From Escherichia phage CEC_Kaz_2018: a stretch of 44,283 nt of DNA. The notes beneath the pieces are model-generated. The model was not told the origin of the DNA. It made no database searches and saw only the letters and a list, made by a program, of their open reading frames with translations. Position 1 is the stretch's first letter, and each line of letters opens with the position of its first letter. Below, piece by piece: positions 20,427 to 20,820 of this stretch. The translations under genes were made by a program, and so were the position numbers. The DNA lies in the sequence record NC_073070.1. One strand, 5' to 3'.

Positions 20427-20820
20427 TATGCAGTCCCCNTTTTTATGCAGTTGCCGATGGATATTGTATCAGCGATTTTAAAACAAACCTTATTCAGTCT
20501 CAGACGAGGGGGGCCCATGACCCCCGTCTAGTCTGAAAGACTGGGCTTTGTCCCGCCTGTCCCGATCGGCTAAAACCCGCGGCAGCACTGGCGGGGACAG
20601 GGGTGCTGTCCCGCTTTGTCCCGCCTCTTTTTGTCCCGCTTTTTGTCCCGTTTGTTTTATGCAGTAAAACCGAATAGGCATGCACATTGTGGGGTGGGAC
20701 AAAGCGGGACGTCCCGCCTGTCCCGTTTTGAGTTTATGCAGTGGAATTGAGTAGGTATGCAGTTTTCAGAGGTGCGGGACGGAACGGGACAAAACGGGAC
20801 GCCACGCTTGTCCCGCTTCA
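20427..20820. repeat. noncoding repeat locus A: two-stem-loop element, >=15 GTCCCGC/GCGGGAC heptamers, 5 TTATGCAGT 9-mers
   Basis: direct reading; first ~175 bp (20489-20665) is ~85-90% identical to 37287-37462. Confidence 0.85.

Follow-up and report, generated by a model that had tools for sequence, protein, structure and literature searches.

In the Staphylococcus aureus pathogenicity islands (SaPIs), the initiator-helicase Rep uses a C-terminal winged helix to read penta- or hexanucleotide iterons, and the replication origin (ori) carries 6 to 12 of these iterons immediately downstream of rep, with an AT-rich centre and at least two iterons on each side in opposite orientation (PMC9371898). 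Bacillus phage SPP1 has two origins, oriL and oriR, that are bound by the same initiator (PMC6316719, PMC3485210). The oriR copy, which has transcription signals on both sides, breaks into an otherwise conserved order of late morphogenesis genes (PMC6316719), and it has been proposed to halt the replication fork and so bring about the change to concatemer synthesis (PMC6316719; PMC3485210). Here, we describe a 394-bp block at positions 20427 to 20820 of Escherichia phage CEC_Kaz_2018 (NC_073070.1), a Dhillonvirus (HK578/SO-1-like coliphage). The window, which is the whole stretch of DNA that was analysed, is 44283 bp long. The block (array 1) lies between the GT tail chaperone and tape-measure genes, and a related array (array 2) lies next to the gene for the primase-helicase gp58. 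We consider it probable, although well short of certain, that the block is an initiator-binding iteron array of the replication-origin type. Most likely, to judge from the sequence comparisons below, it represents a second, expanded copy of the phage replication origin, built from sites to which its primase-helicase would bind. Elements of this kind are known, but a position inside a tail operon is unusual. The literature that we searched described no replication origin and no replication data for Dhillonviruses and contained nothing specific on CGGGAC/GTCCCG iterons or on this primase-helicase/iteron family, only the SaPI, pRN1, and SCCmec analogues.

Array 1, with 13 short noncoding boxes, and array 2, with six, resembled the Rep-ori systems of SaPIs and phage-inducible chromosomal islands in several respects. 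Array 2 was located just 3' of the initiator-helicase gene; array 1 was not so placed, but it had AT-rich segments between oppositely oriented iterons and hence the more complete two-sided architecture. In addition, gp58 may have a C-terminal winged helix, to judge from its model. There were also differences. SaPI Reps are of the superfamily 3 (SF3) or MCM type, whereas the gp58 core is a RecA-like AAA_25 domain, and the phage arrays have a conserved G/C-rich hairpin and a second copy 16.8 kb away in the tail operon. The likeness to SPP1 was in the duplication of the initiator repeats, each copy having its own AT-rich element; the first is beside the initiator gene, and the second is among the late genes. 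In SPP1, however, origin binding is the task of a separate protein, gp38, in partnership with a loader and a DnaB-type helicase; oriL is inside gene 38; and oriR is between head genes, with moron genes, rather than at a GT/tape-measure junction. By analogy, the pair of arrays is best read as a SaPI-type ori architecture in an SPP1-like dual arrangement.

Parts of this design are found elsewhere. In satellite phage P4, a single multifunctional primase-helicase-origin-binding protein, alpha, does what is proposed here for gp58, and short iterons are present at two loci, ori and crr, both of which are thought to be needed in cis. However, alpha is a D5_N/SF3-type protein, the P4 iteron is TGTTCACC, and crr is not in a structural operon. 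The RSF1010/IncQ plasmids have a RepA helicase of the AAA_25/RepA type, as in the gp58 core, a RepB' primase, and an oriV with the ssiA and ssiB hairpins, but their iterons are 20 to 22 bp long and are bound by a separate protein, RepC. Some of the primase-helicases associated with CGGGAC arrays had RepB_primase-like N-termini, recalling IncQ, and by this analogy the conserved hairpins beside the phage iterons could serve as primase entry sites, as the ssi sites do. The origins of simian virus 40 (SV40) and papillomaviruses, which are recognized by large T antigen and E1, respectively, have pentamer or hexamer sites in inverted pairs (two forward, two reverse) with AT-rich and palindromic flanks, and the helicase-initiator assembles on them as double hexamers. 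These are eukaryotic viruses with SF3 helicases, and the likeness is one of architecture only.

CGGGAC arrays accompany primase-helicase genes in unrelated phages

To follow the motif beyond Dhillonviruses, IMG/VR was searched for loci with three closely spaced CGGGAC boxes, which yielded 120 loci (L027-L146). Besides Dhillonviruses, many unrelated contigs (54-70% GC) carried dense arrays with boxes in two orientations, and at the densest loci the array mostly abutted the 3' end of a gene for a primase-helicase of 590 to 840 amino acids. Eight of the 10 proteins examined combined an AAA_25 core with a fused primase domain of the Toprim, Prim-Pol, or RepB-like type. As a control, all 120 loci were searched with a hidden Markov model built from the array-associated primase-helicases. 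An AAA_25-type primase-helicase gene was present at 24 of the 72 dense loci, compared to none of the 48 sparse, chance-like loci (3 to 5 hexamers per 400 bp). At each of the 24 gene-bearing loci, the 3' end of the primase-helicase gene was no more than 300 bp from the array.

A second scan started from the protein and was blind to the motif. Specifically, 80 IMG/VR loci (L147-L226) were collected by homology to the ATPase and the C-terminal region, and at least six hexamers were found within -100 to +500 of the stop codon in 22 of 78 loci. All 22 were among the approximately 48 loci that matched the C-terminal ~90 residues, whereas none of the 30 ATPase-only matches had an array. The other homologues that kept the C-terminal domain mostly had arrays of variant heptamers (CCGGACA, GGGGACA, CGTGACA, CGTAACA, CCGCACA, CCAGACA, CGTACCA, and CATCACA) in the same position 3' of the gene. 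The typical variant layout was a run of direct iterons, then an iteron, a G/C-rich palindrome, and an inverted iteron, and then further inverted iterons; the palindromes at the centre of arrays in unrelated phages were analogous to the main hairpin of the Dhillonvirus arrays. The primase-helicases with CnnnACA arrays shared the C-terminal motif 'W(W)RxxFY...[KR]K[KRQ]AFxRAxxxL', and there were hints that K-K-K and K-Q/R-K versions of its helix pair with different heptamers. In Serratia phage Smarc3, which has a primase-helicase with 45% identity to gp58, four TTCCGCACA boxes were located right past the stop codon.

A short iteron that sits beside a replication gene and changes with the C-terminal domain of its product is, in sequence terms, the signature of an initiator and its origin. 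Because this family of motifs follows primase-helicase genes from one unrelated phage to another, we infer that the boxes are initiator-binding iterons and that the block is a replication-origin-type element. An earlier reading of the window, made from the sequence only, had listed a multimerizing regulator, a packaging or partition site, a reiterated promoter, and an antitermination RNA as possible roles of the block; with the motif following primase-helicase genes, none of these was favoured.

Box cores of the block are conserved amid divergent spacers

Exact CGGGAC/GTCCCG hexamers were present 13 times in the block (20550-20815) and six more times at 37347-37447, with just 15 over the remaining ~43.6 kb; the expectation per 394 bp was ~0.25, based on shuffled sequence. 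The sequence-only reading had counted at least 15 copies of the GTCCCG core in the block, which was correct for the 5-mer GGGAC (16 on both strands) but not for the hexamer. Its spacing of roughly 10 to 15 bp agreed with the 9 to 15 bp that we measured between adjacent hexamers, and the palindrome that it had reported, GCGGGACGTCCCGC, was located at 20704-20717. The TTATGCAGT boxes, which it had put at five copies plus two, were fewer, with four exact copies (20426, 20443, 20657, and 20734) and two one-mismatch copies (20490 and 20755), although the boxes at 20426 and 20443 do adjoin and overlap the tape-measure ATG as described. A duplication of ~175 bp near the primase gene was also recovered, as a repeat between 20490-20665 and 37287-37462 with 83-90% identity. 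Read in the direction of transcription, the block contained the following elements:

20774-20817, both orientations: iteron cluster A, CGGGAC boxes, 68% GC
20727-20773: AT-rich spacer with two TGCATA boxes 21 bp apart, 38% GC
20693-20726: iteron cluster B, two forward then two reverse boxes, includes GCGGGACGTCCCGC, inverted repeat I3
20652-20692: second AT-rich spacer with a TGCATA pair, 39% GC, flanking iterons point away
20547-20651: iteron cluster C, part of the 175-bp module common with array 2, repeat families D2, D3, and D5
20498-20546: G5/C5-6 hairpin or palindrome (main hairpin) beside the last iteron, conserved
20463-20471, minus strand: TGATACAAT, putative extended -10-like promoter element facing the tape-measure gene, predicted from its letters only
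20426-20451: two TTATGCAGT boxes 17 bp apart, overlapping the tape-measure ribosome-binding site (RBS) and ATG

The iteron clusters (63-71% GC) alternated with AT-rich spacers (37-39% GC) in a genome with a mean of 54.5% GC, and on either side of the AT-rich spacers at 20652-20692 and 20727-20773 the iterons faced opposite directions. On the coding strand, cluster C consisted of four direct CGGGACA copies, one inverted copy, a GC-rich spacer, and two further direct copies, and the block ended with two ACTGCATAA boxes that overlapped the RBS and ATG.

In an alignment with 18 relatives, the CGGGAC cores were invariant or nearly so in either orientation, and the spacers had diverged by 10-20% with indels that were not multiples of three. 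The six direct cores of cluster C were invariant, with variable spacers and 1-nt indels between them. Most relatives had the arrangement GCGGGAC-AGG-CGGGAC|GTCCCG-TTTT-GTCCCGC in cluster A, again with conserved box cores and variable spacers, and the TGCATA cores of the 20727-20773 spacer were kept in all 18. The TGATACAAT element was invariant in 18 of 18 relatives; its -35 region was poor, and it was not called by a consensus scan. The main hairpin had an invariant stem and a variable loop among relatives, in both arrays, and was predicted to fold with -15 kcal/mol (z of about -2.9 to -3.6) on either strand. No T-run directly followed it, the nearest T-rich run starting ~7 nt past the stem. 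The cluster B DNA hairpin had a folding energy of -10.5 kcal/mol (z -2.65). When variant positions of both arrays were inspected for concerted evolution within genomes, the pattern was mixed.

Conservation of box cores amid variable spacers is, as read from this alignment, the pattern of protein-binding sites, and the earlier description of the block as having the anatomy of a cooperative DNA-binding platform was judged to be right. Since the boxes were invariant amid diverged, indel-bearing spacers in ~157 genomes, they appeared to be under purifying selection at array 1.

The block is a genus-specific insertion between GT and the tape-measure gene

The genes that flank the block were as follows:

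21135-21497, minus strand: tail assembly chaperone G (Pfam Phage_TAC_4, E 1.4e-23), with the slippery site A_AAA_AAC at the gene end
20821-21144, minus strand: T extension of the GT frameshift product (Pfam DUF1799, E 1e-20), stop codon 20821-20823
17784-20426, minus strand: tape-measure protein gene (Pfam TMP_2, E 6e-43, plus Tape_meas_lam_C)

The -1 frame is open from 21144, and a -1 frameshift at A_AAA_AAC (21144-21138) leads into T. The block extends from the GT stop to the tape-measure ATG, and every gene around it is carried by the minus strand. It is in a 32-kb co-directional unit that starts at a divergent region near 40.3 kb and runs in the order gp59, gp58 (primase-helicase), small genes, lysis, terminase, head, and tail. 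As an outgroup for the junction, we used three more distant relatives of a different genus, whose G proteins were 42-46% identical. In all three, the T stop abutted the tape-measure ATG with no array in between. Thus, the block was a genuine genus-specific insertion, and the direct junctions, together with the verified G, T, and TMP_2 assignments, bore out the earlier claim that a canonical G/GT-to-tape-measure junction is interrupted here.

The block also proved to be noncoding, as had been claimed. The open reading frames inside it had no family match when searched against Pfam, and they were disrupted among relatives by 1-nt, 2-nt, 11-nt, and 21-nt indels; for these two reasons, we agree that they are artefacts.

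The window itself requires some caution. Compared to Escherichia phage B2 (NC_073069.1), it was colinear and of equal length (44283 bp), with zero indels, 4030 substitutions (~9% divergence), and 70 N; transitions predominated among the substitutions, and codon third positions were frequent. The combination of no indel, 4030 substitutions, and 70 N suggested a reference-guided consensus, and reads from another Dhillonvirus strain, or from a mixture, appear to have been mapped onto B2 to give this consensus. Consequently, single-base details in the array may be chimeric, for example, the degenerate box GCGTGGC at ~20803, and strain-specific indels would be invisible. The existence of the block was a different matter. 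A sequence search recovered it in ~157 independent phage records, and exactly two iteron clusters were found in every complete Dhillonvirus genome examined, which excluded the assembly collapse that the sequence-only reading had raised as a concern. The records with a Dhillonvirus block, at 86-92% identity, included 'Campylobacter phage A144' (MG065648.1) and 'Acinetobacter phage NJ01' (OQ221563.1), which are probably coliphage contaminants or have mislabelled hosts.

Array 2, gp58, and gp59

The second array and the two proteins that may read the boxes were located as follows:

37287-37500: array 2, directly downstream of gp58
37295-37343: array 2 hairpin, the same hairpin as in array 1
37344-37449: array 2 iteron cluster C'
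37450-37500: array 2 AT-rich stretch, 31% GC, holds a TTATGCA-N7-TGCATAA palindrome
37609-39861, minus strand: gp58 primase-helicase, proposed initiator (Pfam AAA_25, E 2e-19)
39872-40201, minus strand: gp59, small helix-turn-helix (HTH) protein just upstream of gp58 (Pfam HTH_23 and Sigma70_r4_2, E ~1e-6)

The iterons of array 2 started ~160 bp past the gp58 stop, and the conservation pattern of array 2 among relatives matched that of array 1. The latter is not beside gp58 but at the GT/tape-measure junction, at a distance of 16.8 kb. Homologues of gp58 are named replicative helicase-primase in their sources. In an AlphaFold model, C-terminal residues ~660-730 of gp58 had a helix-helix-helix-wing topology with a predicted local distance difference test (pLDDT) score of 80-89, and every top Foldseek match of this region was a winged HTH DNA-binding domain, with E values that were not significant (best 0.035). 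Because of these E values, the winged helix was counted as weak support only. Thus, the model suggests that the C-terminus may have a winged-helix-like fold, and we infer from the position and covariation of the arrays that gp58 binds the CGGGACA boxes.

Several minor features were noted around array 2. The N7 of the TTATGCA-N7-TGCATAA palindrome (37454-37474) was either ATAAAAC or its reverse complement, GTTTTAT, depending on the Dhillonvirus genome; as aligned, the centre of the palindrome is flipped between genomes. The region of Hafnia phage TS33 that is equivalent to the palindrome contained TTTATGCA boxes. The idea that TTATGCA(G/C) is a DnaA box was dropped; it matched the consensus at only 7 to 8 of 9 positions and was without the conserved 3' ACA. 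A 54-bp unit that included TTTTGCGCGCATTGGTTGCCATTTTG (37560-37640, just past the gp58 stop) was present in one or two copies per Dhillonvirus genome.

For gp59, the RefSeq label is 'DNA recombination nuclease inhibitor gamma'. Pfam showed only HTH_23, Sigma70_r4_2, and HTH_28, and the RefSeq annotation looks wrong on this basis. The protein is a candidate regulator, possibly of the TTGGTTGC motif described below, or a candidate co-initiator.

Proposed mechanism and points against it

The core module (direct iterons, one inverted iteron, and a G/C hairpin) is present twice, once in the canonical position 3' of gp58 and once in array 1, which has in addition two palindromic iteron clusters and two AT-rich spacers with TGCATA boxes. 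In the mechanism that we propose, gp58 protomers would dock on the iterons via the winged helix and assemble as hexamers to both sides of an AT-rich spacer or of the hairpin, where they would open the DNA and prime its synthesis. In this scheme, array 1 would serve as a second origin. It might instead be an auxiliary initiator-binding site, either a crr-like enhancer or, following the proposal for SPP1 oriR, a place where bound protein halts the fork and so sets off concatemer synthesis. The TGATACAAT element just downstream would probably restart transcription into the tape-measure gene after the insertion. We are considerably less sure of a second-origin, auxiliary-site, or fork-stall role for array 1 than of the initiator-binding character of the boxes.

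A number of observations weigh against this interpretation. The CGGGAC iterons of array 2 were on one side of the AT-rich stretch only. The gp58 model had a predicted template modelling score of 0.43, with fold-search E values of 0.035 or higher, and the gp58 C-terminus could not be aligned by sequence to the 'WRxxFY...AKKKAFxRA' domain of the other CGGGACA-associated proteins, as the AAA_25 part alone aligned. As read from its domains, gp59 could bind the boxes in place of gp58. Kagunavirus and Jerseyvirus, whose primase-helicases are 35% and 28% identical to gp58, respectively, lacked an array in this position, and the gene was followed instead by a terminator and a convergent HTH gene. Hence, the rule that places arrays 3' of primase-helicase genes is not universal. 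Hafnia phage TS33 (44% identity to gp58) had a different repeat, ATGTTGGCTG. There was no inflection of GC skew at either array; GC/AT skew followed gene orientation only, with flips at ~8.4 and 40.3 kb, and was uninformative about origins. Finally, with the two arrays co-oriented in one long co-directional transcription unit, their hairpin and palindromes could also function as RNA.

Alternative explanations for the block

One alternative keeps gp58 as the binding protein but not the firing of an origin. Array 1 would be a gp58-occupied checkpoint in the tail operon, at which gp58 on ~13 iterons stalls the fork and drives the theta-to-concatemer switch, in line with the SPP1 oriR proposal. 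RNA polymerase would be blocked or gated between GT and the tape-measure gene, and expression of the tape-measure and tail-tip genes from the TGATACAAT promoter would be coupled to the replication state. This idea seemed unlikely to us.

A transcription-control module also seemed unlikely. In this explanation, transcription would be terminated or attenuated after G/GT, TGATACAAT would re-initiate it, tape-measure and distal tail expression would be lowered, and the CGGGAC/TGCATAA boxes would be operators for a regulator such as gp59, which does have an HTH domain; the copy after gp58 would mark the boundary between early and late genes. Both arrays are indeed oriented alike within the long minus-strand transcription unit, at functional boundaries, and TGATACAAT is invariant among relatives. 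In the WF5505 record, the equivalent of the cluster A palindrome plus TTTT is labelled a putative terminator, and our scan called one terminator-like site (20795-20815). As a Rho-independent terminator, this palindrome plus TTTT qualified weakly, but the main hairpin failed; it was without an adjacent U-tract and was not called. In addition, consensus scans found promoter- and terminator-like sites to be no commoner than in shuffled sequence, and a distinct promoter-associated motif, TTGGTTGC (17 gene-co-oriented copies), was absent from array 1. This explanation also left the heptamer arrays 3' of primase-helicase genes, and their covariation with the C-terminal domain, unexplained. Because SPP1 oriR is also bracketed by transcription signals, origin and transcription roles can coexist. 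Of the roles in the earlier list, packaging and RNA were without support, and a transcriptional component may be present as a secondary feature, given the invariant TGATACAAT.

It was improbable that the block is an artefact or that it arose when DNA flanking the origin was duplicated, neutrally or selfishly, and became fixed in the genus ancestor without any role at its present site. A duplication of this kind would account for the insertion relative to outgroup phages and for a block core that is a copy of array 2. It would not account for box cores that are invariant across ~157 genomes despite spacers that are 10-20% diverged and contain indels, or for the two further clusters that the block, but not array 2, has gained.

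More improbable again was a structured RNA in the GT/tape-measure mRNA, with a role in processing, stability, or antitermination or as a GGGAC-RNA-binding platform. Several stable hairpins were predicted, the main hairpin combines an invariant stem with a variable loop, and both copies are transcribed in the same sense. However, no significant Rfam match was found (the best, to eukaryotic miRNA models, had an E value of 0.31 and was far below the gathering score), and the stems were invariant, so there were no compensatory changes and no covariation support for an RNA element. Moreover, the boxes were conserved equally in both orientations, as DNA recognition predicts, and other phages had their arrays downstream of genes that were convergent or unrelated.

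A packaging (pac/cos) or partition-type site for the small terminase or a structural DNA-binding protein was scarcely credible: short repeated boxes are typical of terminase-binding sites and in Smarc3 a 'pac site' has been annotated ~450 bp past the primase-helicase gene, within the same intergenic region, but 11-12 kb separate the block from the terminase genes (32012-32584 and 30627-32012), published PhageTerm analyses of Dhillonviruses indicated headful packaging or a 10-nt cos, ATCTTAAGGG (EE09), this cos sequence had no exact match in the window and no match with two or fewer mismatches in either array, and the arrays track primase-helicases rather than terminases. In the Smarc3 record (MT980832.1; locus L242), the depositors' 'pac site' is at coordinate 1, and the intergenic region 39605-40056 is shared with the four TTCCGCACA boxes; packaging in that phage may start close to a putative origin. 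Because two records start or end inside the hairpin, we considered whether it is a physical genome end; this idea was rejected, as the CHD5UKE2 case was a 127-nt assembler overlap.

Implications and other repeats in the window

Dhillonviruses are among the commonest Escherichia coli siphoviruses in phage collections, and the analysis yields two precise candidates for their origin and a candidate initiator, gp58. The block accounts for a conserved patch that is labelled inconsistently in GenBank (hypothetical protein, repeat_region, or terminator), and for engineering, the GT/tape-measure junction should not be taken as a dispensable spacer. The rule that putative origins are marked by heptamer arrays directly 3' of AAA_25 primase-helicase genes would apply to many uncultivated phages; it would be useful for annotation and for building phage-derived replicons, and it may be more useful than the finding about the block. 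On a broader and less likely reading, CnnnACA arrays with a G/C palindrome 3' of AAA_25 primase-helicases would be a large uncharacterised class of phage origins, in which a winged-helix-to-iteron specificity code could be read from sequence. If array 1 acts like SPP1 oriR, an initiator-binding site in a late operon would be a recurrent solution in unrelated siphoviruses.

Two other repeat types were found in the window. The octamer TTGGTTGC, usually within ATTGGTTGC(A/C), was present in 17 copies compared to ~1.4 expected. Plus-strand copies were at 2547, 5489, 5506, 7179, 26391, 26405, 34023, and 36565, and minus-strand copies were at 37098, 37129, 37500, 37535, 37589, 40392, and 43197. The copies were mostly intergenic, just upstream of genes and co-oriented with them, and they often overlapped -35/-10-like hexamers, for example, TTGCAT-N17-TATATT at ~37128-37095; a repeat pair was located at 7154-7192 and 26366-26404. 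From its placement, TTGGTTGC is probably a phage-specific promoter or operator motif that is distinct from the CGGGAC iterons. The other type consisted of imperfect 45-nt direct repeats (family D1) at 43825-44043, in the Asp/Glu-rich, acidic C-terminal end of a gene similar to those for single-stranded DNA-binding proteins (43277-44059), and these repeats are probably the ordinary acidic tail of that gene.

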